A stretch of 64,000 nt of DNA from Spirochaetota bacterium (GTDB taxonomy: Bacteria > Spirochaetota > UBA4802 > UBA5550): NCBI GenBank assembly GCA_041753395.1, contig JBGSUQ010000025.1, positions 268,189 to 332,188 on the forward strand, written 5' to 3'. The notes under the pieces were generated by a model. The model did not search any database, was not told where the DNA came from, and saw nothing but the letters and a program-made list of their open reading frames with translations. Shown here one piece after another: positions 6,177 through 48,502 of the stretch; position 1 is the first letter of the stretch, and each line of letters starts with the position of its first letter. The position numbers and the translations under genes were made by a program.

Positions 6177-8522
6177 ATGGAAAAAATTGATTTACTCAAG
6201 ATAGAAACATTCGCACTTAAGATTTTCATCGGCCTCTGTGTGCTGGGGGGGCTCATGTTCGGCTACGTCACGGCGGAGATAAAGAATTATTCCGGCATCG
6301 AGAACCTGAAGGCGTTCCAGCCCAGCATTCCCACGCGACTCTACGACGTGAACGGCGAGGTAATTGCCGAGCTGTTTCAGCAGCGCCGCTATCCGGTAGC
6401 CTTTGAAGAACTTCCCCCGTGCCTGGTGAATGCGTTCCTGTCCGCCGAGGACCAGGATTTTTATGACCACTTCGGCATATCCCCACCGGCCATCATGCGG
6501 GCCATGGGAAAAAATGTCATCTCGTCGATAAAAGCGTTCCGTCCGATGATTTCACAGGGCGGATCCACCATCACCCAGCAGCTGGCCAAGCGGCTTTTCA
6601 CCACGGGTGAGCGCACCTTCGGCCGCAAGGCCCTGGAGGCGATCCTGGCGCTCCAGATCGAAAAGCGATTCACAAAAGAAGAAATCCTGGAGATGTATTT
6701 TAACCAGATCTATTTCGGACACGGGTGCCACGGCGTCGCCGCGGCGTCGCGGTTCTTTTTTCAAAAAAATATTAAGTACATTAACGCCATCGAGAGCTCG
6801 GTCCTGGCGGGACTGCCGACACGTCCCAACGGCCTGTCGCCCATCAAGTACCCGCGGCGGGCCATGGCCAAGAACCGGGACACGCTGAACCGCATGGTCG
6901 ACCAGGGCTATCTTGACAGGAAGAGCGCCGACCGGTTGTACGAGACATTCTGGCCCGCCTTCGTCGATTCGATCATCATGGATTACCCGACCAAAACCGC
7001 CCGCTCGAAGTTTCAGGACAAGGCTCCTTACTTCACTGATTACGTACGTCAGATCCTCATCTCGCGCTTTGGGGAGGAAATGGTTTACAACGACGGCCTG
7101 AGCGTATATACGACACTCAACCTGCGCGAGCAGAAGATCGCTGAACGCGTCCTGAAAGACTCATTAAAAAAACAGAACTCAGTTTCAGTGAAAGCCAATA
7201 TGAACAAGACCATGGCCATGGAGATGGGCATGATAGACTCCTTTGAGGGCTTGCGCATGATATTCCCGCTTCCATCGGTTTCCATAAGCCAGAATGGGGA
7301 AAGCATGTTCAAACAGATGATGGCCGATGATCTTCTCGATGCAGCTGAGATACTATCGTTCTTTTCAGAAACTCCGGGGTGCAACAGGGCCCTCGAGGCG
7401 TACCATTCCCAGATCACAGGACTGTCCTCGATCATGAGCGTCGAGGGGGCCATCATAGCAATAGAGCCCTTCAGCAGCTACATCAAGGCAATGGTGGGCG
7501 GTTCGAAATTTGAAGTGCAGAACCAGTACAACCGTGCCGTGCAGGCCAAGCGGCAGCCCGGTTCTTCCTTCAAACCCTTCGTGTACGGGGCGGCAATAGA
7601 GAATAAGCTGGTGACCACGGAGACGCAGCTGCCTGACGCTCCGATCCTGGACATTGACGCGATCGGCAACACCTGGACGCCGGGCAACTACGAGGGCGAA
7701 TACCGGGGCATGGTGCCGGTCAGCAATGCCCTGTCCGCTTCCATTAACGTGATATCAATCAGGCTCTACGACCTCCTGGGGCCCGATAAGATTATAGACT
7801 ATGCCTCGAAGATGACCAAGGTGCCGCCCACGGATTTCGGCGCGAACCCCACCATTGCCCTCGGCACGTCGGAACTGACGCCCTTTGAGATGGCCACCGG
7901 GTATGCCATATATGCAAATCGAGGCAAGGACGTCATACCCTTTGCCGTACGCTACGTCGTGGACAGGGACGGCAATGAAGTGGCGAACATCGAGGGAGAG
8001 GTCGGAGAGATCCTCGCCAGGAAAACCAAGAACGGCACGATCCAGGTCATCAGCGAAGATGTCGCTTGGATCATGACACAGCTCATGATGAAGGTCGTTG
8101 ACAGCGGCACCGCCACGGAAGGGATCCGCATCAAGGGCGGCTATTCTAAAAAGGGCGCCGGCAAGACCGGCTCCACCTCCAACTGGTCAGACGCTTGGTT
8201 CTGCGGGTTTACGCCCGATATAGCCGCTGTCGTGTGGGTGGGCTACGACCAGTCGTTCCTGTCCCTGGGAACGCACCAGGCCGCGTCGGAAGTCGCAGCG
8301 CCGGTTTGGGGTCGGTTTATGGATAGCTTCTATAAAGGGAAACCTGACCCGCAGTTTCCGGACAGGCCCCCCGGGGTATGCCAGATTGGATCAGGCTGGG
8401 GTCTTGAAGGGGCCCAATCCCAGTATTACAGTACTGACGGCAATGATATCATGAAATCGGTGCTTGAGCGCTACATGGAGATAGAAGGTTTCATAGAAGA
8501 GAAGAAGCGGTACGGTAACTGA
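6177..8522 (+). CDS. class A penicillin-binding protein (bifunctional glycosyltransferase/transpeptidase, PBP1A family)
   Basis: N-terminal TM anchor. GT51 motifs (EDxxFYxHxG, GGSTITQQLAK). Transpeptidase SxxK motif (SSFKPF). Confidence 0.9.
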   Translation: MEKIDLLKIETFALKIFIGLCVLGGLMFGYVTAEIKNYSGIENLKAFQPSIPTRLYDVNGEVIAELFQQRRYPVAFEELPPCLVNAFLSAEDQDFYDHFGISPPAIMRAMGKNVISSIKAFRPMISQGGSTITQQLAKRLFTTGERTFGRKALEAILALQIEKRFTKEEILEMYFNQIYFGHGCHGVAAASRFFFQKNIKYINAIESSVLAGLPTRPNGLSPIKYPRRAMAKNRDTLNRMVDQGYLDRKSADRLYETFWPAFVDSIIMDYPTKTARSKFQDKAPYFTDYVRQILISRFGEEMVYNDGLSVYTTLNLREQKIAERVLKDSLKKQNSVSVKANMNKTMAMEMGMIDSFEGLRMIFPLPSVSISQNGESMFKQMMADDLLDAAEILSFFSETPGCNRALEAYHSQITGLSSIMSVEGAIIAIEPFSSYIKAMVGGSKFEVQNQYNRAVQAKRQPGSSFKPFVYGAAIENKLVTTETQLPDAPILDIDAIGNTWTPGNYEGEYRGMVPVSNALSASINVISIRLYDLLGPDKIIDYASKMTKVPPTDFGANPTIALGTSELTPFEMATGYAIYANRGKDVIPFAVRYVVDRDGNEVANIEGEVGEILARKTKNGTIQVISEDVAWIMTQLMMKVVDSGTATEGIRIKGGYSKKGAGKTGSTSNWSDAWFCGFTPDIAAVVWVGYDQSFLSLGTHQAASEVAAPVWGRFMDSFYKGKPDPQFPDRPPGVCQIGSGWGLEGAQSQYYSTDGNDIMKSVLERYMEIEGFIEEKKRYGN

Positions 8523-8909
8523 ACCTATGCCGGGCAGAATGTCCGTGAGCGGCCCTGATTGAGGAGGAAGCATAGATCTGTTATAATACCATGTATAATG
8601 TATCATTTTAAATTTTTCGTTTGATTTTTTACTATATATACATACACTATTAGTTATGCTGTTTCTGCCCTGTTAATTAAAGGGAAGCCGATTTTTGTTA
8701 AATTCTGTACAGGAGGTTGGAACCATATACAAAAACCATCTTAAAAGACGCTGAAAAACAGTGTGATAAGGAGGTACAGGGAATATAATTGATTTTTTAT
8801 TATTTTTTTTTGTATGGTTACCTGTTTTCCGTAGAATTATTCTTGAAATTTTAAAATTTTATGATATAATTCATTAAAAATTTGAGAGGGTGAGGTATAG
8901 GGAATTTAT

Positions 8910-9404
8910 ATGTTCAAGGTCGGTGACAATATTGTCTATCCTATGCATGGCGTGGGAAGAATAGAGGCCATCGAAAAAAAAGTCATTTTAGGTAAGAGAA
9001 GTGAATATTATATTATTACAATCCTGAACAGCGGGATGAAGGTGATGATTCCGGTAAAGAACGCTGAACAAATTGGAATACGGAGTATCATACCCAAAAA
9101 GGACATCAAGAAAGTGCTCGGCGTGCTGATTAAGAATGAAATAAGCTCGGTGGATGATTGGAAAGAACGGTATCAGAACAATATCGATAAAGTGAAAAGT
9201 GGTTCTATCTATGAAGTCTCTGAAGTGGCCAGGGACCTGTACCGCCGGGGACGCGAAAAAGAGCTTTCCATTATGGAACGAAAGCTGTATGAAAACGCGT
9301 ATCAGTTAGTAACGCATGAAGTTGCCCTGTCTAAAAATATCGACCTGGAGGAAGCCGGTAACCTGGTTTCCGAAGCCCTCTCATCTCATCATCCGAAAAA
9401 GTAA
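8910..9404 (+). CDS. cdnL: CarD/CdnL-family RNA-polymerase-binding transcription factor
   Basis: [36 protein letters not shown]...MIPV.. matches the CarD_CdnL_TRCF N-terminal domain. Length 164 aa. Confidence 0.85.
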
Positions 9405-10540: not shown

Positions 10541-11821
10541 ATGCGATTGATCAATGAGATCACGGTCATCATCAGGAAAAAAAGCTTTCCCAGCTTCATC
10601 GATGAGCTGTACAAGCGTGAGTGCGATCTCCTCGAGCTTCAGCATATCGAGGAGTCGGGTGACGGTTACCTTTACACCCTTCGTATCGCATGCGACAACC
10701 TGAAGCGCTTCGAGGAATTCGTTACCATCATAAGCAACGCCGGCGACAAGTACAAGTTCATATCGGTGAAAAATGTTGTTGAAGATCGCATTGTAGGCGG
10801 TCTCCTCTCCGTATCAGGGAAAATACCGCTTGAAAATATAACTGACCTCAACACCTCTGTGCTGGGCGCGGCAGACCTGATGCTTGAAAAGATAAAAAGC
10901 GAAGACGGGAAGCGCTACACCAGCATTTCGCGGAACGTGGCCCTGGTCGCAGGGATCAGGTCAACGGAAGAAGCGGCCCGTGTAAACCTCCTCAAGGAAT
11001 ATGTCGGCGCCGAGCGCGACGCTGTGATACTCAACAGGTTTTCAGGCCTTAACGGTTTCCCCCTGACGGTACGCTTCGAGCACCCAGAGGACGTCATCCA
11101 GGTTCTCAAGAAGATCGAGCATAATTATTCCGCGCTCCGCGTCACCCGCATCGACGAGGCTTCGATCATGCTCTATGACATGCTGTTTTCTGACCTTACT
11201 GTGCCCATTGCCTCGCTGGAGCATGACGATATTCCCCTGTTCCTGCTGGTCCTCGTCATCAAGATTATGATGAAGTACCGGATCAAGGCGGAAGAAACCA
11301 CGGTCGGCTTCATCGGCATTGACCTGAGCGCCGTGCGCCTCACCCGGGTCCTGGACAAGATCGGCTTCCGGAGGATACTCGGCTTCGATCACAACGAAAA
11401 TTCAATGCTGGCCCTGGAAAACCAGGGAGGCCTTGCGACAACAGCAGAGAATATTTTTGGTAACGCTGACATTACCATTCTTTTGAAAAACAACTTCGAT
11501 ATCGAAGAGTACCGGAAAATACGGCCAGGACAGTTTGTCATATCCTTCATGGGCAAGGATGGGCCCGACCTGGAAGAGATATCGGGTAAAGGCGTGCGTG
11601 AGTTCTTAAAACGGGGGTTGTCTGATCTGGCGGTCCTGTACCCGGGCATGCTGCGCGGGATGATCGACGCAAATGTCGGAAATATCAATGATGCGAGGCT
11701 GGTTGAGTATTCGAAAAAGCTGGTGACCCTGCTGTCAGACGCCTTCGAATTTCCCCATCTCTTTGGAGACATCCATGACAAGGTTTATAAAATTGTCTCC
11801 CAGGACAAGGTTAAGCCTTAA
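10541..11821 (+). CDS. ACT-domain protein with a malic-enzyme-like NAD(P)-binding (Malic_M-like) domain
   Basis: C-terminal region FVISFMGKDGPDLEEI...LAVLYPGMLRGMIDANVGNINDARLVEYSKKL parallels the malic-enzyme NAD domain. N-terminal ~80 aa are ACT-like. Confidence 0.5.
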   Translation: MRLINEITVIIRKKSFPSFIDELYKRECDLLELQHIEESGDGYLYTLRIACDNLKRFEEFVTIISNAGDKYKFISVKNVVEDRIVGGLLSVSGKIPLENITDLNTSVLGAADLMLEKIKSEDGKRYTSISRNVALVAGIRSTEEAARVNLLKEYVGAERDAVILNRFSGLNGFPLTVRFEHPEDVIQVLKKIEHNYSALRVTRIDEASIMLYDMLFSDLTVPIASLEHDDIPLFLLVLVIKIMMKYRIKAEETTVGFIGIDLSAVRLTRVLDKIGFRRILGFDHNENSMLALENQGGLATTAENIFGNADITILLKNNFDIEEYRKIRPGQFVISFMGKDGPDLEEISGKGVREFLKRGLSDLAVLYPGMLRGMIDANVGNINDARLVEYSKKLVTLLSDAFEFPHLFGDIHDKVYKIVSQDKVKP

Positions 11822-11844
11822 CCCGGATGCGGGTCACTATTTTA

Positions 11845-12200
11845 GCGAGGGAGACGGCCTCCGCGGCCTTCTCCCTCGCGCTCCCACTTCCCGGTCGCTC
11901 AAACGGCGCGACTGCCTTGGCGATTAACTCGACTGCGTTCGCTTCGCTCTGCGCAGCCTCGGACAACAATCGCCTATCAGTATCCGCCCTCCGGGCGGAT
12001 GTTTTTGGGGATGGTTTATTGGAATAAATTTTGCATTGAATACCTGCGGCATGGATGCCGCAGGCGGCGCGAGTCTGCAGGAGGCTGCATACGAGCGCCG
12101 GGCAGGATTAGGATGTTCATTATTTAAGCCCAGCCCGCCGCAGGCGCGGGGTGATGAAGAGCGCGAGAGGAAGAGGGAAGCCACCCTCTTCCTCTCGCAA
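11845..12200. repeat. GC-rich region of multiple perfect hairpins between convergent genes (REP-like; could be 3'UTR or sRNA)
   Basis: GCGAGGGAGACGGCC-tccgc-GGCCTTCTCCCTCGC at 11850-11886; TGCGGCATGGATGCCGCAG; GCGAGAGGAAGAGGG-aagccacc-CTCTTCCTCTCGC at 12165-12200. Confidence 0.5.
11984..12007 (+). terminator. intrinsic terminator for the plus-strand ACT/malic-enzyme-like gene
   Basis: CCGCC-ctccg-GGCGG followed by ATGTTTTTG. Confidence 0.6.
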
Positions 12201-41311: not shown

Positions 41312-42415
41312 TCAGGGGCAGATTACGATACCCTTGGCCCAGAGACATTCGCCGCAGGGTGTCTGGTTCCCGTAGCAGTCGGAAGCTTCAACGGTGCGCT
41401 TGTAGCACATGTCGGGCCGGTAACAATACGCGCAGTCCGGGTAATCATAATAGAGGAAATTATTTCTTAATTCCACGAATGTTCTTTTGTTCCACACCTC
41501 CTCCAGCGTGTCGGCCTTTATGTTTCCCAGTATAAACTTCTCGTGCATCCTTTGCATCCCGGAATAAAAGGCCGGATGGGTATAGGCCAGCTCCGGGCAG
41601 GGGGCGATATCTCCTTCGGCAGTGATAAACATGGTTCCCCGTTCCATGAAGGGACATGTCCGGTTGCCGTGCATTTCCTGGTTTGCCACCCTGAGCGGGT
41701 ATTTCTTCATCTCCCGGCGGAGCAGCCTGCGCAGGTCCGTGTTTTTCCCGAATCCGGTATCGTACAGGATCTCCGATGTCATTGACTTCGTGTATGGATA
41801 CAGGTTGGAAACAATGAATTGATTTATGCCGATCGACCGGCCGTATTCGATCGACCCGGGTATGTGTTGATAGTTTACCCTGGTCGCGACTATCTGCATT
41901 CCTATCATCGGGAGGCTGTTTCCAGAGGCGGCTTTTATTCCGGCCAGTGTCTCTATATTGCTTCTAAATATATCGGCCCTGGCACCGCGACGGATATTCA
42001 AATCAGTTCCGAATATATCATCATCCCATGAAACATGCAATTCGTCAAGAGGGAGGCTGACAAGGTATTCAGACATTTCCCTGGTGAGAAAAGAGGCGTT
42101 CGATACAAGTACGATCTTCGTGTCCAGTTTGCGCAATGACTTCAGGTTCTCCCTGATATGGGGGCTGCTGAGTGCCTCGCCGAAGCCCAGGAGTACGATT
42201 CTCTCCGGACTGGGGGCCTCCAGCATCGGCATCAGTTTTCGCATTAGCCGGGGTGTGAAATGGCATTTCCTGAAATCAACTATCGATTGTCTGATACAGC
42301 TCCGGCACGACAGGTTACAATGCGTTGTAAGCTCTATGTATACCTGCCTGATGCAAGGGGATACCGTCTGCGTTTCAGACCTGAAAACGAGGGAAAAATT
42401 TTCTTTTTTGCTCAT
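41312..42415 (-). CDS. radical SAM enzyme with C-terminal SPASM/twitch Cys-rich domain
   Basis: CNLSCRSC is the CxxxCxxC motif. C-terminal CPFM...CPEL...CAYCYRPDMC...CGECLWAKGIVICP. ATGA overlap with arsC (42412-42415). Last gene of the hgc/ars operon. Confidence 0.8.
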   Translation of the reverse strand: MSKKENFSLVFRSETQTVSPCIRQVYIELTTHCNLSCRSCIRQSIVDFRKCHFTPRLMRKLMPMLEAPSPERIVLLGFGEALSSPHIRENLKSLRKLDTKIVLVSNASFLTREMSEYLVSLPLDELHVSWDDDIFGTDLNIRRGARADIFRSNIETLAGIKAASGNSLPMIGMQIVATRVNYQHIPGSIEYGRSIGINQFIVSNLYPYTKSMTSEILYDTGFGKNTDLRRLLRREMKKYPLRVANQEMHGNRTCPFMERGTMFITAEGDIAPCPELAYTHPAFYSGMQRMHEKFILGNIKADTLEEVWNKRTFVELRNNFLYYDYPDCAYCYRPDMCYKRTVEASDCYGNQTPCGECLWAKGIVICP

Positions 42416-42867
42416 GGATTGTTAATGTCAGGATTTATCAGCGATTGCGGGATTGCTTCAATGAATGCGCGTATCTCGTTACGGACCCGACGGTAGTGCG
42501 CCAGCGCCTCATTTTCGCCGGTGGCGTTTTGTGCCAGAGCGGGCGGATCGTCGAAGCCCTTGTGTATAAATTTCGCCTTGCCGCGGAAGAAGGGGCAGGT
42601 TTCGGACACGCCCCCGCACAGGGTGATGACGTAATCGAATTTCAAACCGGCGAATTCATCCACGTGTTTCGAACGCTGGACCGATATGTCGATGCCGATC
42701 TCGGCCATGACAGTGACTGCGCGCGGGTCAAGGCCTTTTGGCTCAGTCCCGGCCGAATGCGCATCAATGAGATCGCTTTTCAGATGCCGGGCCAGTCCCT
42801 CGGCCATTTGGCTCCGGCAGGAGTTCCCGGTGCAAAGGAAGAGTATTTTTATTTTATCGGAAGGCAT
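42412..42867 (-). CDS. arsC: arsenate reductase, thioredoxin-coupled LMW-PTPase type
   Basis: ILFLCTGNSCRSQMAEG...VITLCGGVSETCP holds the three catalytic Cys of Bacillus-type ArsC. Strong full-length similarity. Confidence 0.9.
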   Translation of the reverse strand: MPSDKIKILFLCTGNSCRSQMAEGLARHLKSDLIDAHSAGTEPKGLDPRAVTVMAEIGIDISVQRSKHVDEFAGLKFDYVITLCGGVSETCPFFRGKAKFIHKGFDDPPALAQNATGENEALAHYRRVRNEIRAFIEAIPQSLINPDINNP

Positions 42868-42876
42868 ATAATTCTC

Positions 42877-43557
42877 CTATTTTCCATTCATGTTTTTTTG
42901 TCTGAGCCGTTCCATTAAATCCTTTGCTTTCTGCATGGCGTCCTGCTCGGATTTATCACTGGCGGCAAGCCAGGGCTGTGTTACCTGCCAGGTCAATTTT
43001 CCCGAATAGGGAGGTTCGGGATACGCGCCGGGATCAAGCAGGGTATTCCCCATGAATTCAACCGGATTTTCCTGAAAACACGACCAAACTGCTTTTCGAA
43101 TTATTTCCGGGTCGCCCTGGAACTGAAGGTCGATGAGACTCACCTGCTCCCTGAACCGTTTAATGAATTCGACAGGGATATTGTACAGATAAGGATGAAG
43201 GGCATCAGTGCCGATTATCTTTTTCTTCTCATCCACGCCATTGGCCATGAGGGCCTTCAGGGCGGAGCCGGTCTGGCGACCGTCCGATTCGGGACCGCCG
43301 AGAATCAAATACCTGATGTTGGGATTGGCTACGAAATTGCAGATCATTTTTTCAAAGCCGATGTTAGGGGTCTGCACCGTGCCGGACAGGGCCGCTCCGG
43401 TTTCCGCGCCGGCGCGAACCAGAAGTTCGATTTCGGGAGGAATCTTGTCCTCGTCAGTTTTGAGAATAATTGCCACTGCGACCGGGGAAAAGTCATTTCC
43501 CCGTATGTAGCGTCCCGGTTCGCAGGGGTAATCCGGATGTGGCGGTACTTTCAGCAT
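42877..43557 (-). CDS. MtrA-like protein (homolog of tetrahydromethanopterin S-methyltransferase subunit A, a corrinoid-binding fold)
   Basis: The stretch NPNIRYLILGGPESDGRQTGSALKALMANGVDEKKKIIGTDALHPYLYNIPVEFIKRFREQVSLIDL aligns by eye with archaeal MtrA (NPNIRYLLV..GHITGQS..NGV....I.GA.GAIPYVENL..EAIARFQEQV..VNL). The position of the MtrA His ligand appears to be Arg. Confidence 0.65.
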   Translation of the reverse strand: MLKVPPHPDYPCEPGRYIRGNDFSPVAVAIILKTDEDKIPPEIELLVRAGAETGAALSGTVQTPNIGFEKMICNFVANPNIRYLILGGPESDGRQTGSALKALMANGVDEKKKIIGTDALHPYLYNIPVEFIKRFREQVSLIDLQFQGDPEIIRKAVWSCFQENPVEFMGNTLLDPGAYPEPPYSGKLTWQVTQPWLAASDKSEQDAMQKAKDLMERLRQKNMNGK

Positions 43558-43614
43558 GTTGTAGTGCTCTCTGGTAGTATGATTTTCAAAATCATACTAC
43601 CGTTTCTTCTCCTA

Positions 43615-44655
43615 TTAAAAATACTTTTTTTTGAAAAATAGTGCCACATTTACAAGGCCGATCATGACCGGAACCTCGACAAGCGGTCCGATAACTGCCG
43701 CAAAAGCGGCCCCTGAATTGATGCCGAAAACAGCGACCGCGACCGCTATGGCGAGCTCAAAATTATTGCTCGCCGCCGTGAACGAGAGGGTCGTCGCAAC
43801 CGGGTATCCGGCGCCAATCTTTTTGCTCATGTAGAAACTAACCAGAAACATGACAATAAAGTAGATCAGCAGCGGTATCGCGATTCGAACGACGTCCATC
43901 GGTATTTTTACAATGTACTCACCCTTCAGGCTGAACATGACCAGTATGGTAAAGAGGAGAGCGATGAGCGTAATGGGACTGATTTTCGGAATGAATTTTG
44001 TCTGGTACCATTCCTTGTTTTTCAGCTTGATAAGCGCGAAGCGTGTGATTATCCCCGCAATAAAGGGAATGCCAAGGTAAATAAATACACTTTTTGCGAT
44101 CTGTCCTATGGTGATGTCAACAATGCTTCCGCTGAGACCGAACAGCGGAGGTAGAATGGTGATAAAAAACCACGCATACACACTGAAGAACAGGACCTGG
44201 AAAATGCTGTTGAAGGCCACGAGCCCGGCAGCGTATTCAGCGTCACCCCTGGCAAGGTCGTTCCACACTATTACCATGGCAATGCAGCGCGCCAGGCCAA
44301 TCATGATGAGACCGACCATGTACTCCGGATAACCGCTCAGGAATGCAAGGGCAAGAAAAAACATCAACACTGGTCCGATGATCCAGTTCTGTACGAGCGA
44401 AAGACCGAGCACTTTCCAGTTTTTGAATACATCGCCCAGCTCCTCGTATTTGACTTTCGCCAGTGGAGGGTACATCATGAGTATAAGACCAATCGCGATG
44501 GGGATGTTCGTGGTTCCTGTCTGGAATTGGCTCCAGAATGCCGCTGTCGAGGGGACAAAATATCCCAGGCCAACGCCGATGGCCATAGCGGCGAAGATCC
44601 ATAGGGTTAAATAGCGGTCGACAAAAGAAAGTTTTTTTGTTATTCCTTCAGTCAT
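43615..44655 (-). CDS. arsB: arsenite efflux transporter, ACR3 family
   Basis: [33 protein letters not shown] is the ACR3 N-terminus. 10 TM helices. AGGGAGAA SD. The ORF-track frame extends to 44757 but ATG 44655 is the likely start. Confidence 0.85.
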
Positions 44656-44669
44656 TATCGTTCTCCCTG

Positions 44670-45368
44670 TTACATTAATTGTATCCTGAAAATATAGAGA
44701 ATGCAGAAATATATGCCAATCATGATGAATAAAATACCGGTGATGCGGCGTCCCCACAATTCAAGCTTCGTGACCGCGTTAAATACGCCTGATAGGTGCC
44801 GGGCGCCAAAGGCTGCCAGGAGCGCGAAGGCCATTACCGGGAGCGCCGTGCCGGCTCCGTAGAGGGCCGGCATGAGCAGGGCCGATTGGTGCCGCACCGC
44901 CAGGGGAATGAGGCTGCCGAAAAAGAGCGCAGCAGATACAGGGCAAAAGGCCAGAGCGAAAACAATTCCCATGACGAACGAAGCAGCAAATATGTTTTTT
45001 TCGGCAAGTCGCTGAAGTGTTGACGTGTCGGTCCCGCTGCCGGCGGGGAGATGTATCAGCTCCAGGAGGAACATACCGGCAACGATGAGAACCGGGCCCA
45101 GGGCTCTGTTCATGTAGCGCTGCAAAAAATCCGACACTGTGGGGATTGACAGAAGGCTTGCGACTAACAGTGCCGCAAGCGCAGTGTAGGCGGTCACCCT
45201 TCCCAGCAGATATAATGCTCCGGTGATAACTACCTTTTTTGTTTCAGCCGCGTTTTTTCCGATATATGACACAGCCGCGATGTTGGTCGCCAGGGGGCAG
45301 GGACTGATGGAGGTGAGAATGCCCAGCCAGATGGCGGCGATGATGCCGGTAGTCAGTTCTCCGTTCAT
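44670..45368 (-). CDS. ccdA: CcdA/DsbD-family transmembrane thiol-disulfide electron transporter
   Basis: [21 protein letters not shown] is the conserved SPCPL motif. ~6 TM helices. ATGA overlap with the upstream gene. Confidence 0.8.
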
Positions 45369-45871
45369 ATGGTTTTCAAATATAATGTTATTTCGTTTTT
45401 GATATAACCGGTGAAAGCCGTTTCGTCCCGGACCAGCTCCCATATCCGGTCGAGGTTTTTCCACCGTACCTGCTTTCCCTTCACGGTATCGACAATTACC
45501 ACGGACTTGGTGAAAAGCTTGAAGTCATCGGCGAAGTGCCTGTTTTCCGGAAATTCAATATTGACCGGCTTCCATGCGATCCGTTGTGTCGCCAATTCCC
45601 TGGAAAAAAAGTTCTTAACGGTTGATTCGGTGAGAGACTCGATCTTCCGGCAGGTGGGGCACCGGAAGGTCGTGTGGAAATAGTAGACCGTCAAGGCACG
45701 CTCCTTTACGGGGATGCTGGTATCCGGCGCGTCCTTATCACTTTTTTGCTGTGTATCAGACGCGGTAATTTCGTCCTTTGCCGGCTTCCGGACTTCCGTT
45801 GCGATCAGGTACATTACGCTGGCCGCGACAAAAATAGACAAAACAATGGTGGCAATTCTTCGTATCTTCAT
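45365..45871 (-). CDS. membrane-anchored thioredoxin-fold protein with CPTC motif (paralog A; uncharacterised family)
   Basis: N-terminal TM helix and a charged linker. The domain VYYFHTTFRCPTCRKIE...WKPVNIEFPENRHFADDFKLFTKSVVIVDT...VRWKNLD...FTGYIKNEI is paralogous to 47921..48502. Confidence 0.6.
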   Translation of the reverse strand: MKIRRIATIVLSIFVAASVMYLIATEVRKPAKDEITASDTQQKSDKDAPDTSIPVKERALTVYYFHTTFRCPTCRKIESLTESTVKNFFSRELATQRIAWKPVNIEFPENRHFADDFKLFTKSVVIVDTVKGKQVRWKNLDRIWELVRDETAFTGYIKNEITLYLKTI

Positions 45872-45901
45872 CAGGTTTTCCTCTATAATAATAGTATCGT
45901 A

Positions 45902-46309
45902 TCAGCAAATTCCGCCGCAGGAACAGCCTGAAGATTTTACTCCGGACGCTGTCGGTTCATTCCTCATAATACGGTCGCTTAGGGAATTAATGATTTCTTC
46001 TGAAGGCAGCGTCTTCCCTTTCTCAATGCCGAAATCGGTCAGGATATAGGAAAGGGGCGTAACGCCGATGCGCTCCAGGGTCTTCTTTGCACATTGGACG
46101 GGGCACCCGTCTATGGTGATATTTACATCAGCCCCTTTTGCCGATTCGACGAACCCGGAAAGGTCCGCCCCGATACCGGCGAGGCAGGTCATGCGCGCGA
46201 ATGCCCGGTCGCGGAGTTTCCGCGACACACCATCAGCGATCTGACCCACGTCGGCAGCGCCGGAACATGAATATAAGAGTTTAACTCCTCCAGTGCAGCA
46301 ATCAGCCAT
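45902..46309 (-). CDS. DGC-domain Cys-rich protein (putative zinc-binding)
   Basis: ITIDGCPVQC is the DGC signature. N-terminal CC, C-terminal CSCGGIC. 135 aa. Confidence 0.65.
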   Translation of the reverse strand: MADCCTGGVKLLYSCSGAADVGQIADGVSRKLRDRAFARMTCLAGIGADLSGFVESAKGADVNITIDGCPVQCAKKTLERIGVTPLSYILTDFGIEKGKTLPSEEIINSLSDRIMRNEPTASGVKSSGCSCGGIC

Positions 46310-46320
46310 GACATTTGCTC

Positions 46321-46551
46321 CTATGATAATAATTTTTTAATCTCATCCAGGGACGGTATTTTTCCGGCCACCTTGACGATGCCGTCCTTCACCAGGGCAG
46401 GCGTCATCATGACGCCGTAGTTGGTGATGGCGTTGATGTCCTTTACGTGATTGATCTGTGCGTCAAGGCCCATCTCCTTCACGGCCTGCCGTGTCAGTTC
46501 TTCAAGCTTCTGGCATTTGAAACAGCCGGTACCCAGTATTTCTAAAAGCAT
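46321..46551 (-). CDS. small thioredoxin-family protein (redox-active disulfide protein 2 / Thioredoxin_3 type)
   Basis: MLLEILGTGCFKCQKLEE...YGVMMTPALVKDGIVKVAGKIPSLDEIKKLL is the characteristic GTGC-K-C family. GGAGAT SD. It sits next to the DUF318 permease, its usual partner. Confidence 0.8.
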   Translation of the reverse strand: MLLEILGTGCFKCQKLEELTRQAVKEMGLDAQINHVKDINAITNYGVMMTPALVKDGIVKVAGKIPSLDEIKKLLS

Positions 46552-46573
46552 GATCAATCTCCTTGTTAAGTTC

Positions 46574-47872
46574 TTAAAATAGAGCTCCAAAAATCATACC
46601 TGATATAGTTGACATAATAACCACGAGGGAGCAGTATACTATGGTCTTTTGTGTACCCAGGTAGCTGCGGATCACCAGCATGCTTGGCAGCGAGAGGGCC
46701 GGACCTGCAAGAAGCAGCGCCAGCGCCGGGCCCTTACCCATGCCGCTGCCGATAAGGCCCTGCACAATGGGGACCTCGGTAAGGGTGGCGAAGTACATGA
46801 AGGCGCCCACTATGGCGGCAAAGAAATTCGCCCGGAGGGAGTTGCCGCCCACCGCTGTCTGTACCCAATCTGACGGAATGATACCCTCATGGCCCGGTCT
46901 TCCCAGGAGGAACCCGGATACCAGCACGCCTACCAGGAGGAGCGGCGTAATCTGCTTGGCAAAGTCCCATGTCGCGGTGAACCATGTGCCGGATTCGCCC
47001 TTATCGGGACCGGTGATTATGGCGAGGCCAATCGCTCCGGCAGCGAAAGGGATTATGGGATACTCGATGAAGAAAATACCAAGGATGATGACAGCCAGCC
47101 CAACCAGTGCGACTTTCCACCATTTTAATTCAAACCAGAAAACCAGGACAATGGCAAACACCGCTGCCGACACCGCGGTTATTATCCATTTGTAGGTGAA
47201 TATAAAATAGAAGATTCCGTCTGCCTCATCCGGCCTGCCCCAGTTGGCGAAAACAAGAATGGCCACCATTGAGGCGAAATAGACCGCGTCTTTCCAGAGG
47301 GGCCTCTTTGTTTCCGGCACCGGCATGTTCATGGCCGCGTTGACCTTGGCTATTTCCTCCTTACGGTAGATGAAGTGCATGATGCCGCCTATGATCACGC
47401 TGAAGGAAACAGCGCCGACGGCCCGGGCGATACCGATATCGGCCCCCAGAATCCGCGCCGTTAGTATGATCGCGAGGACATTGATGGCCGGTCCTGAGTA
47501 GAGGAAGGCGATAGCCGGTCCCAGGCCCGCGCCCATGCGGTAGATGCCGGAGAAGAGGGGAAGCACCGTACAGGAGCAGACCGCCAGGACAGACCCTGAA
47601 ACCGAACCCACACCATAGGCGAGGGCTTTGTTGGCCGTGGGTCCCAGATATTTCATGACCGATTCCTGCCGGACAAATGTCCCTATGGCCCCGGCGATAA
47701 AGAAGGCCGGGATGAGGCAGAGGACCACGTGCTCCCGGGCGTACCACTGGGCGAGGCGCAGGGCTTCAAACACAGCGTTGTCGAATCTCGATGTGCCCAC
47801 GGGCATGTAATAGAGCGCCAGGAAAAATCCGGCGATCCACAGCAAAGGTTTCCATTCGTTTTTCCAGTTCAT
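46574..47872 (-). CDS. DUF318/COG0701 permease (ArsP-like, CSC motif)
   Basis: ~10-12 TM helices with an intramembrane VLAVCSCTVLP (compare the ArsP TPFcSCS motif). Paired with the Thioredoxin_3 protein. Confidence 0.75.
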   Translation of the reverse strand: MNWKNEWKPLLWIAGFFLALYYMPVGTSRFDNAVFEALRLAQWYAREHVVLCLIPAFFIAGAIGTFVRQESVMKYLGPTANKALAYGVGSVSGSVLAVCSCTVLPLFSGIYRMGAGLGPAIAFLYSGPAINVLAIILTARILGADIGIARAVGAVSFSVIIGGIMHFIYRKEEIAKVNAAMNMPVPETKRPLWKDAVYFASMVAILVFANWGRPDEADGIFYFIFTYKWIITAVSAAVFAIVLVFWFELKWWKVALVGLAVIILGIFFIEYPIIPFAAGAIGLAIITGPDKGESGTWFTATWDFAKQITPLLLVGVLVSGFLLGRPGHEGIIPSDWVQTAVGGNSLRANFFAAIVGAFMYFATLTEVPIVQGLIGSGMGKGPALALLLAGPALSLPSMLVIRSYLGTQKTIVYCSLVVIMSTISGMIFGALF

Positions 47873-47920
47873 TCTTTCATGTCTCCGCTAAAGTGTAATC
47901 AAACGCACCGGCAATATATA

Positions 47921-48502
47921 TCAGAGATATGACGCAACTTCTGCCTGAATATACTTCATAAACCCGGCTCTGTCGCCGGCCAGGTTCTCAGCATTGTCGA
48001 GGACCTTCCACTGGATTTTCCTGTTTACCGCCGGAGTAACGATGACGATGGACCTTTTTTTTAGTTTAAAATCATCGGCAAAGTGTTTGTTCCAGGGCTC
48101 ATCCATGTTCACGGATCTCCAGATCAGCTTTCCAGATGCCATCTGGTTTCTGAAACAGGTGTAGAGCGATTGTATCGTGAGACGCTCGAATCTGCGGCAT
48201 GCGGCGTCACGGTCGGTATAATGAAAATAATAGACGATTGATTTGAGATATTCTTTCTGGATTGTTTGCCGGGAATTATCCCGTTTCTCCCCCCTGTCCG
48301 TTTTGGCTTTTTTTTCATCGGCCCCGGTTTTGGGAGGGGAAGATTTTTCATTCCTTGTCTCATCCATCTGCGCTGATTTCTGAGCCGGGGAAGTTTCTTT
48401 TTCCGGCAAGCCCACCCGGCCCATCAGGAAATACAGGGAACCGACGATGATGCAGAGGAGCAGAATGATAATTATTATATTTCTTTTTTTTGTGGTGCTC
48501 AA
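47921..48502 (-). CDS. membrane-anchored thioredoxin-fold-like protein lacking the first active-site Cys (paralog B)
   Basis: IVYYFHYTDRDAACRRFE...WRSVNMDEPWNKHFADDFKLKKRSIVIVTP...IQWKVLD...FMKYIQAEV is paralogous to 45365..45871. Confidence 0.6.
   Translation of the reverse strand: MSTTKKRNIIIIILLLCIIVGSLYFLMGRVGLPEKETSPAQKSAQMDETRNEKSSPPKTGADEKKAKTDRGEKRDNSRQTIQKEYLKSIVYYFHYTDRDAACRRFERLTIQSLYTCFRNQMASGKLIWRSVNMDEPWNKHFADDFKLKKRSIVIVTPAVNRKIQWKVLDNAENLAGDRAGFMKYIQAEVASYL

Follow-up and report, generated by a model that had tools for sequence, protein, structure and literature searches.

A module of the arsE-arsF-arsG type was found in a 64,000-nucleotide stretch (the window) of contig JBGSUQ010000025.1 from a Spirochaetota bacterium, where it forms part of a string of 13 minus-strand open reading frames that runs head to tail from position 50429 to position 41312, with no gap longer than 63 nucleotides (nt), and that opens with hgcA and hgcB. 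The locus very probably represents the arsE-arsF-arsG module that is widespread in the arsenic resistance (ars) operons of anaerobes. It is thus a further case of a known and annotated module, and the family is not new. The explanation that best accounts for the locus as a whole, in which we place moderate confidence, joins an ArsEFG module, a thiol relay by which it would work, and an accessory role for a second ArsF-like protein. This second protein represents a rare branch of the family in which the first cysteine of the CxxC motif is replaced by aspartate (DxxC), a minor new ArsF variant with 7 sequences against roughly 2,000 clusters for the family.

The two ArsF-like proteins are here called paralog A (45365 to 45871; 168 amino acids [aa]) and paralog B (47921 to 48502; 193 aa, with a TTG start). 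Both exceed the cutoff (bit score, 60) of the ArsF family model NF040494, paralog A with a bit score of 115.6 and paralog B with 75.9, and both cover the 106-position model over nearly its full length. A first-pass annotation of the window, made from the sequence alone, had recognized the two as paralogs sharing a domain, and this is borne out by a gapless alignment of 104 aa with 41% identity (E = 3e-29), in which all of the motifs then quoted are present (YYFH, W[KR]xVN, NxHFADDFKL, [KR]S[VI]VIV, and WKxLD). Its statement that the domain belongs to no named family does not hold, since both paralogs pass NF040494 and their neighbors belong to the ArsG and ArsE families. A Pfam scan gave no match for the domain of paralog A, and the lack of a Pfam model explains why no family name was offered. 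This corrects what was probably an over-reading: the domain is not an orphan but a member of a named family whose name was derived from experiments.

Each paralog contains a single N-terminal hydrophobic segment (residues 6 to 24 in A and 9 to 27 in B) followed by a linker rich in Lys, Glu, and Asp, in agreement with the transmembrane (TM) helix and charged linker first described for them. In the AlphaFold2 model of paralog A, built with 38 sequences, the linker is disordered, with a predicted local distance difference test (pLDDT) score below 50 for residues 28 to 52, and the domain itself is modeled at a pLDDT above 90 with the order β-α-β-α-β-β-α (strands 58 to 66, 98 to 104, 123 to 130, and 133 to 139; helices 72 to 88, 112 to 116, and 150 to 167). 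The active-site column reads C71-P-T-C74 in paralog A and D-A-A-C in paralog B. In the model, the CxxC of paralog A sits at the N terminus of helix 72 to 88, which is the canonical thioredoxin position, and the top matches of the model in a Foldseek search against the Protein Data Bank (PDB) are all thioredoxins (E of about 2e-4). A sequence search of the PDB with the ArsF profile returned chance-level matches only, indicating that no structure of the ArsF family has been solved. The CxxC motif is present in 120 of 120 homologs of paralog A, 73 of which have CPTC, so the assignment of this motif to the thioredoxin position is upheld by fold, structural matches, and conservation alike. The N-terminal hydrophobic segment is found in 119 of 122 ArsF-family members, about 9 have a lipobox, and several have signals of the cleavable type; together these features argue that the ArsF domain is extracytoplasmic throughout the family, as the first-pass annotation had supposed for the two paralogs.

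Directly downstream of paralog A lies the gene for a 232-aa membrane protein of the ArsG family (44670 to 45368), whose ATG overlaps the stop codon of paralog A by 4 nt (ATGA), an arrangement that suggests translational coupling. The protein matches the ArsG equivalog model NF040495 over positions 5 to 224 of 225 (bit score, 273.7; cutoff, 200). Among Pfam domains, it passes DsbD_2 (bit score, 53.6; cutoff, 24.9) and falls below the cutoff of DsbD_TM (bit score, 21.4; cutoff, 27.1). It contains six hydrophobic segments, and two cysteines, Cys24 in TM1 (SPCP) and Cys142 in TM4 (FCP), are invariant in 80 of 80 ArsG orthologs. An AlphaFold2 model of moderate confidence (pLDDT, 69.5) has helix breaks at both cysteine motifs. 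Many ArsG homologs are labeled cytochrome c-type biogenesis protein CcdA by the Joint Genome Institute (JGI), and elsewhere homologs carry the label sulfite exporter TauE/SafE. The early designation of this protein as CcdA accords with the two invariant cysteines, and the one match of the ArsG profile in the PDB, though weak, is a CcdA.

The three genes between the paralogs were correctly named at the outset, as Pfam scans confirmed. Downstream of paralog B, a 432-aa permease (46574 to 47872) belongs to the ArsP_1 family (PF03773; bit score, 232.4; cutoff, 32.3) and contains a vicinal cysteine pair, VCSC, within AVCSCTV. The next gene (46321 to 46551) encodes a 76-aa ArsE-like thioredoxin that matches Thioredoxin_3 and TIGR00412 (bit score, 101.9; cutoff, 62); its motif is GCFKC, and it has no signal or TM segment by hydropathy, which places it in the cytoplasm. 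The third is a 135-aa cysteine-rich protein with a DGC domain (45902 to 46309; PF08859; bit score, 94.5), whose further cysteine features are an N-terminal DCC and a C-terminal tail with GCSCGGIC.

This arrangement recurs widely. A scan with one genome per species yielded 189 relatives, of which 80 loci were kept, and neighbors were counted by tblastn of the window proteins within 10 kb of ArsF. In 79 of these loci, the next gene downstream of ArsF, in the same orientation, is ArsG; the 80th stops at a contig edge. The ArsE-like thioredoxin is found near ArsF at 74 loci and ArsP at 63, the latter usually directly upstream of the thioredoxin; ACR3 and ArsR occur at 56 loci each, ArsC at 30, the DGC gene at 17 (between the thioredoxin and ArsF), and HgcA at 7. 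The phyla represented include Spirochaetota, Planctomycetota, Acidobacteriota, Desulfobacterota, Chlorobiota, Zixibacteria, Fibrobacterota, and Bacillota, and the closest relatives of the window are metagenome-assembled genomes (MAGs) of uncultured Spirochaetota. An exhaustive HMMER search found 2,036 cluster representatives of the ArsF family at 50% identity, and a plasmid island of Prevotella nigrescens carries the module as annotated by the Prokaryotic Genome Annotation Pipeline (PGAP). The order hgcAB-arsR-...-arsF-arsG-acr3 is shared by the Spirochaetota loci L006 to L010 and L015 and is rearranged in L037, and the order of the distal genes, from ACR3 to the radical SAM gene, is kept in the closest relative (L003, identical to L006).

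Because a cytoplasmic CxxC thioredoxin, a CcdA-like protein with two cysteines, and an exported CxxC fold are encoded together, we consider a thiol relay across the membrane the likeliest mechanism, a proposal that is made by analogy and with about even confidence and that agrees with the first-pass annotation. In this relay, the ArsE-like thioredoxin would reduce Cys24 and Cys142 of ArsG in the membrane, and ArsG would then reduce the CxxC of the exported, membrane-tethered ArsF domain. This would provide the outer face of the membrane either with thiol reducing power or with a dithiol in reduced form, able to bind trivalent arsenicals. Such a relay could underlie the function for which the family is named, the reduction of the nitro group of aromatic arsenicals, and its native substrate would probably be a more general arsenic-thiol problem.

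The proposed relay resembles the thioredoxin-to-CcdA/DsbD systems (CcdA-ResA/CcsX, DsbD-DsbC/CcmG, and ScsB-ScsC) in having a small CxxC thioredoxin, a six-TM protein with Cys-Pro motifs in TM1 and TM4, and a tethered, exported CxxC protein encoded next door. It differs from them in that the TM4 motif of ArsG is F-C-P rather than P-C, in that Ser123 seems to stand in ArsF in the place of the cis-proline, and in its context, which is arsenic resistance and not cytochrome maturation or disulfide isomerization. The idea of a transmembrane relay in ars operons is not new. Castillo and Saier (2010; PMC2963123, section 3.9) reported 8 instances of ars operons with CcdA, a thioredoxin, and a "redox-active disulfide protein 2," tied the system to ArsC, and proposed a putative redox system that possibly moves electrons across the membrane. 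The same kinds of genes are found in the window, and no monothiol variant was reported in that study.

Several observations weigh against the relay. The similarity of ArsG to CcdA is marginal: the single match of the ArsG profile among PDB sequences, Thermus CcdA (5VKV), is full-length but weak (E = 0.0033), and a Foldseek search with the ArsG model (pLDDT, 69.5) found no structural match. Topology was deduced from hydropathy and signal heuristics rather than from a trained predictor. A profile comparison with hhalign placed CPTC of ArsF on CGPC of Escherichia coli TrxA and VNIE on LNID, weakly (E = 0.12); when this match is extended by hand and with the strand start in the model, the invariant Ser123 of the T-K-S motif falls at the position of cis-Pro76, so that the ArsF family seems to be without the thioredoxin cis-proline. 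The cis-proline reportedly disfavors metal binding by thioredoxins. Two intramembrane cysteines would equally suit an As(III)-binding permease, and thiol transfer itself is argued solely by analogy with the thioredoxin-CcdA-ResA/DsbD systems. Finally, the NCBIfam names assign other roles, ArsE with ArsF being a nitroreductase and ArsG an efflux permease, and these are said to be the roles found for the three proteins in published work.

Read literally, these names describe a system in which ArsE and ArsF together reduce trivalent nitroaromatic arsenicals such as roxarsone and nitarsone to their amino products and ArsG effluxes these, with no electron relay. We consider this unlikely, although the names, stated by NF040494, NF040495, and TIGR00412 alike, rest on experiments, and although the exporter label (TauE/SafE) on some ArsG homologs points the same way; the DsbD_2 superfamily also includes real exporters. 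The anatomy of the module is hard to square with the names. The ArsF domain is apparently exported and ArsE is cytoplasmic, and a soluble enzyme made directly of the two is difficult to reconcile with this topology, which would put the membrane between them. No flavin- or metal-cofactor domain was detected in ArsF, which has no Pfam match and a plain thioredoxin fold, and the invariant Cys-Pro motifs in TM1 and TM4 of ArsG are a hallmark of CcdA. Moreover, the family, in which a CxxC thioredoxin fold that is exported goes obligately with a CcdA-like protein containing two Cys, comprises about 2,000 clusters from environmental anaerobes of many phyla, a breadth that synthetic feed additives as native substrate cannot explain. 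The module of the window resembles the ArsEFG system of Shewanella putrefaciens 200, to which it is likened via the family models, in passing the cutoffs of all three of these, in the ArsF-to-ArsG adjacency, and in its ars operon context. It differs in the additional ArsP-family permease, DGC protein, DxxC ArsF-like gene, and hgcAB, and in its anatomy, which points to a thiol relay and not to a nitroreductase with a permease. The relay and the named functions can be compatible if the relay powers a periplasmic reduction.

Paralog B departs from this scheme. The loss of its first active-site cysteine, seen in the first-pass annotation, is real and is shared: word-based and exhaustive searches found six homologs (P0122 to P0127), and the first-Cys column is Asp in all 7 B-type sequences, which retain the second Cys along with the TM anchor and the motifs of the family. 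In a tree, the B-type sequences form one clade on a long stem branch, and a neighboring sequence, P0207, is also without the first Cys; P0161 and P0211 are further one-Cys variants. By both distances and tree, paralog B lies no nearer the local paralog A than it does remote members of the family, and an origin as a recent tandem copy of A was rejected on these grounds. Independent tandem duplications of ArsF were found in an Ignavibacteriaceae MAG (L061, 9446 to 10471) and in two Zixibacteria MAGs (L071, 5616 to 6627, and L072, 4734 to 5440; of the L072 copies, the upstream one is a C-terminal fragment), and two proteins, P0128 and P0129, are fusions of two ArsF domains. Unlike paralog B, every complete copy or domain of these duplicates and fusions retains CxxC.

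The B gene does not adjoin the ArsG gene, from which it is 2.5 kb away, and its position between arsR and arsP is found only in the window and its closest relative; three other Spirochaetota loci that are otherwise syntenic, L007, L008, and L015, do not have it. At two further loci, L004 and L005, a B-type gene occurs with no ArsG or other ars transporter nearby. Paralog B has lost both the nucleophilic Cys and the linkage to ArsG, which argues that it does not cycle as a reductase, and it is probably a binding or accessory periplasmic protein and not a redox-cycling enzyme. Of the role first offered for the two paralogs, a catalytic/resolving or decoy pair, the catalytic/resolving half is not supported, given the lost nucleophile, the retention of just the second Cys, which is normally buried, and the existence of B-type genes without ArsG or paralog A elsewhere, and a decoy or binding function is possible. 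At positions 594 to 731 of L005, a Chrysiogenales-labeled MAG, directly upstream of the B-type gene, lies an arsR fragment whose match to the ArsR of the window is confined to the last 46 residues. B-type genes and arsR may move together.

Binding rather than redox chemistry might also be the function of the module as a whole. The CxxC of ArsF, and the Asp and Cys of paralog B, would then act in the periplasm as a chaperone or sink for As(III), methyl-As(III), or Hg(II), exchanging it with the Cys pair of ArsG or the CSC pair of the ArsP-like permease; as a variant, the hgcAB-first operon might serve Hg(II) delivery or the removal of methylmercury. The invariant Ser in the place of the cis-proline, the conserved His66, Arg70, and His112 around the CxxC of ArsF, the ligand-conservative change from Cys to Asp in paralog B, the vicinal Cys pair of the permease, and the linkage to hgcAB at 7 of the 80 loci all agree with this view. 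Nevertheless, hgcAB is linked to ArsF far less often than ArsR or ACR3, so that any role in mercury handling would be lineage specific, and we found no evidence for a role in Hg(II) handling beyond the gene linkage itself. A periplasmic chaperone would also have no obvious benefit for a toxin already exported. We regard non-redox handling by the whole module as improbable.

That paralog B is a decaying, functionless duplicate of paralog A is very improbable. The lack of the nucleophilic Cys, the TTG start with a weak ribosome binding site, and the absence of the gene from three syntenic loci would fit decay, but the B-type domain is conserved at 48 to 74% identity across the six homologs with the same Asp and with anchor and motifs intact, forms its own clade no nearer to the local paralog A, and persists alone in other genomes. 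The idea of a pseudogene was rejected because of this conservation.

A chance placement beside ars genes of a cytochrome c maturation pair (CcdA with a ResA/CcsX-like thioredoxin), which the JGI labels and the DsbD_2 match of ArsG might suggest, is extremely improbable and was rejected on gene context, because 79 of 80 ArsF-ArsG pairs lie among ars genes and not ccs or res genes, the membrane protein passes the ArsG equivalog model but scores below the cutoff of DsbD_TM, and in Prevotella the pair is carried by a mobile ars island.

A more far-reaching reading, which we hold to be doubtful, is that ArsE, ArsG, and ArsF form a DsbD-like relay that is misnamed today and whose native work is periplasmic thiol chemistry on natural arsenicals, with the DxxC protein, acquired in this Spirochaetota lineage and encoded directly after hgcAB and arsR, as a non-redox metal(loid)-binding partner in the periplasm that would join arsenic handling to mercury methylation. 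The linkage of arsenic and mercury genes (hgcAB-ars) has been published before. The proposed connection of arsenic resistance with mercury methylation, itself described earlier, could be approached through the DxxC branch and through the one hgcAB-ars string of the window.

The string opens with HgcA (49230 to 50429; NF040863; bit score, 403), followed by HgcB (48922 to 49245; NF040864; bit score, 120) and an ArsR/SmtB repressor (48566 to 48910; PF01022 and NF033788), after which come paralog B and the genes described above. Downstream of ArsG are ACR3 (43615 to 44655; TIGR00832), an MtrA-like protein (42877 to 43557; PF04208; NF002126 subfamily, with a bit score of 188), a thioredoxin-type ArsC (42412 to 42867) that scores below the cutoff of TIGR02691 (bit score, 126.8; cutoff, 174.3), and a radical SAM/SPASM protein (41312 to 42415) whose matches to maturase families are below cutoff. 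The whole string, with hgcAB at its head, is probably under ArsR control. The cysteine clusters of this ArsR, RLCCPCVLDFIGC and AQCCG, are C terminal, and the classic helix-3 CVC site is not the one present; the sensing site may accordingly be at the C terminus. An Rfam scan of the window found no RNA family.

Placement of hgcAB beside arsR, acr3, and arsC has been reported (McDaniel et al., 2020; PMC7438021, Fig. 6; Gionfriddo et al., bioRxiv 10.1101/2022.10.17.512643), as has an arsR5-arsP-arsE-DGC operon of strain ND132 that is arsenic induced. The passages of those papers that were searched mention no ArsF or ArsG beside hgcAB; in the window, by comparison, all 13 genes are codirectional. 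The ArsP-family permease adjoining a small CxxC thioredoxin-like protein also resembles SaoE and SaoT of the SAO system (Haft; bioRxiv 10.1101/2022.07.06.499078). The scores of the window proteins are below cutoff for both SaoE (bit score, 116.6; cutoff, 325) and SaoT (bit score, 13.8; cutoff, 65), and selenoproteins, SaoL, SaoB, and SaoC are absent. Membership of the window proteins in the SAO system is ruled out by scores so far below the cutoffs.

In the N-terminal extension of HgcA, residues 21 and 22 (50364 to 50369, minus strand) are Cys-Cys within GQNCCAPP, and there is no in-frame TGA; most HgcA proteins have a Cys-Sec (CU) or CC motif there (Haft; bioRxiv 10.1101/2022.07.06.499078). 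Upstream of hgcA on the minus strand, positions 50444 to 50486 hold a promoter-like TTGACG-17-TATATT, identified by consensus matches only, and overlapping it a 13-nt inverted repeat with the arms ATTGAATATTTGG and CCAAATAGCCAAT separated by an 8-nt spacer. This repeat is a candidate ArsR operator for the entire 13-gene string. Farther upstream, an imperfect, G/C-rich, 35-nt inverted repeat (50618 to 50695; 74% complementary) lies between hgcA and a divergent hemerythrin gene. This gene is the first of three that are divergent from hgcA (50922 to 53108) and that encode a hemerythrin, a small ferredoxin, and a flavodiiron-type protein (Lactamase_B with flavodoxin); the same three types occur by hgcA in the closest relative.

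Between acr3 and the MtrA-like gene is a gap of 57 nt, the greater part of which is occupied by a perfect palindrome of 14 + 14 nt (43573 to 43601; GGTAGTATGATTTT c AAAATCATACTACC). This palindrome could be an internal operator, an attenuator, or a processing hairpin. MtrA is a corrinoid-binding subunit, and the MtrA-like protein, which with the radical SAM/SPASM protein closes the string (41312 to 43557), is an intriguing second corrinoid-type protein in an hgcA operon. The radical SAM protein best matches a tungsten-cofactor oxidoreductase maturase and, likewise below cutoff, a "metalloenzyme maturase." The MtrA-like and radical SAM genes are conserved in the closest relative and, in part, in L009 and L010. 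That closest relative (L003) has hgcA (8058 to 9255) and the arsP-like gene (10619 to 11915) each split into two frames, possibly through indel errors in the assembly rather than as real pseudogenes.

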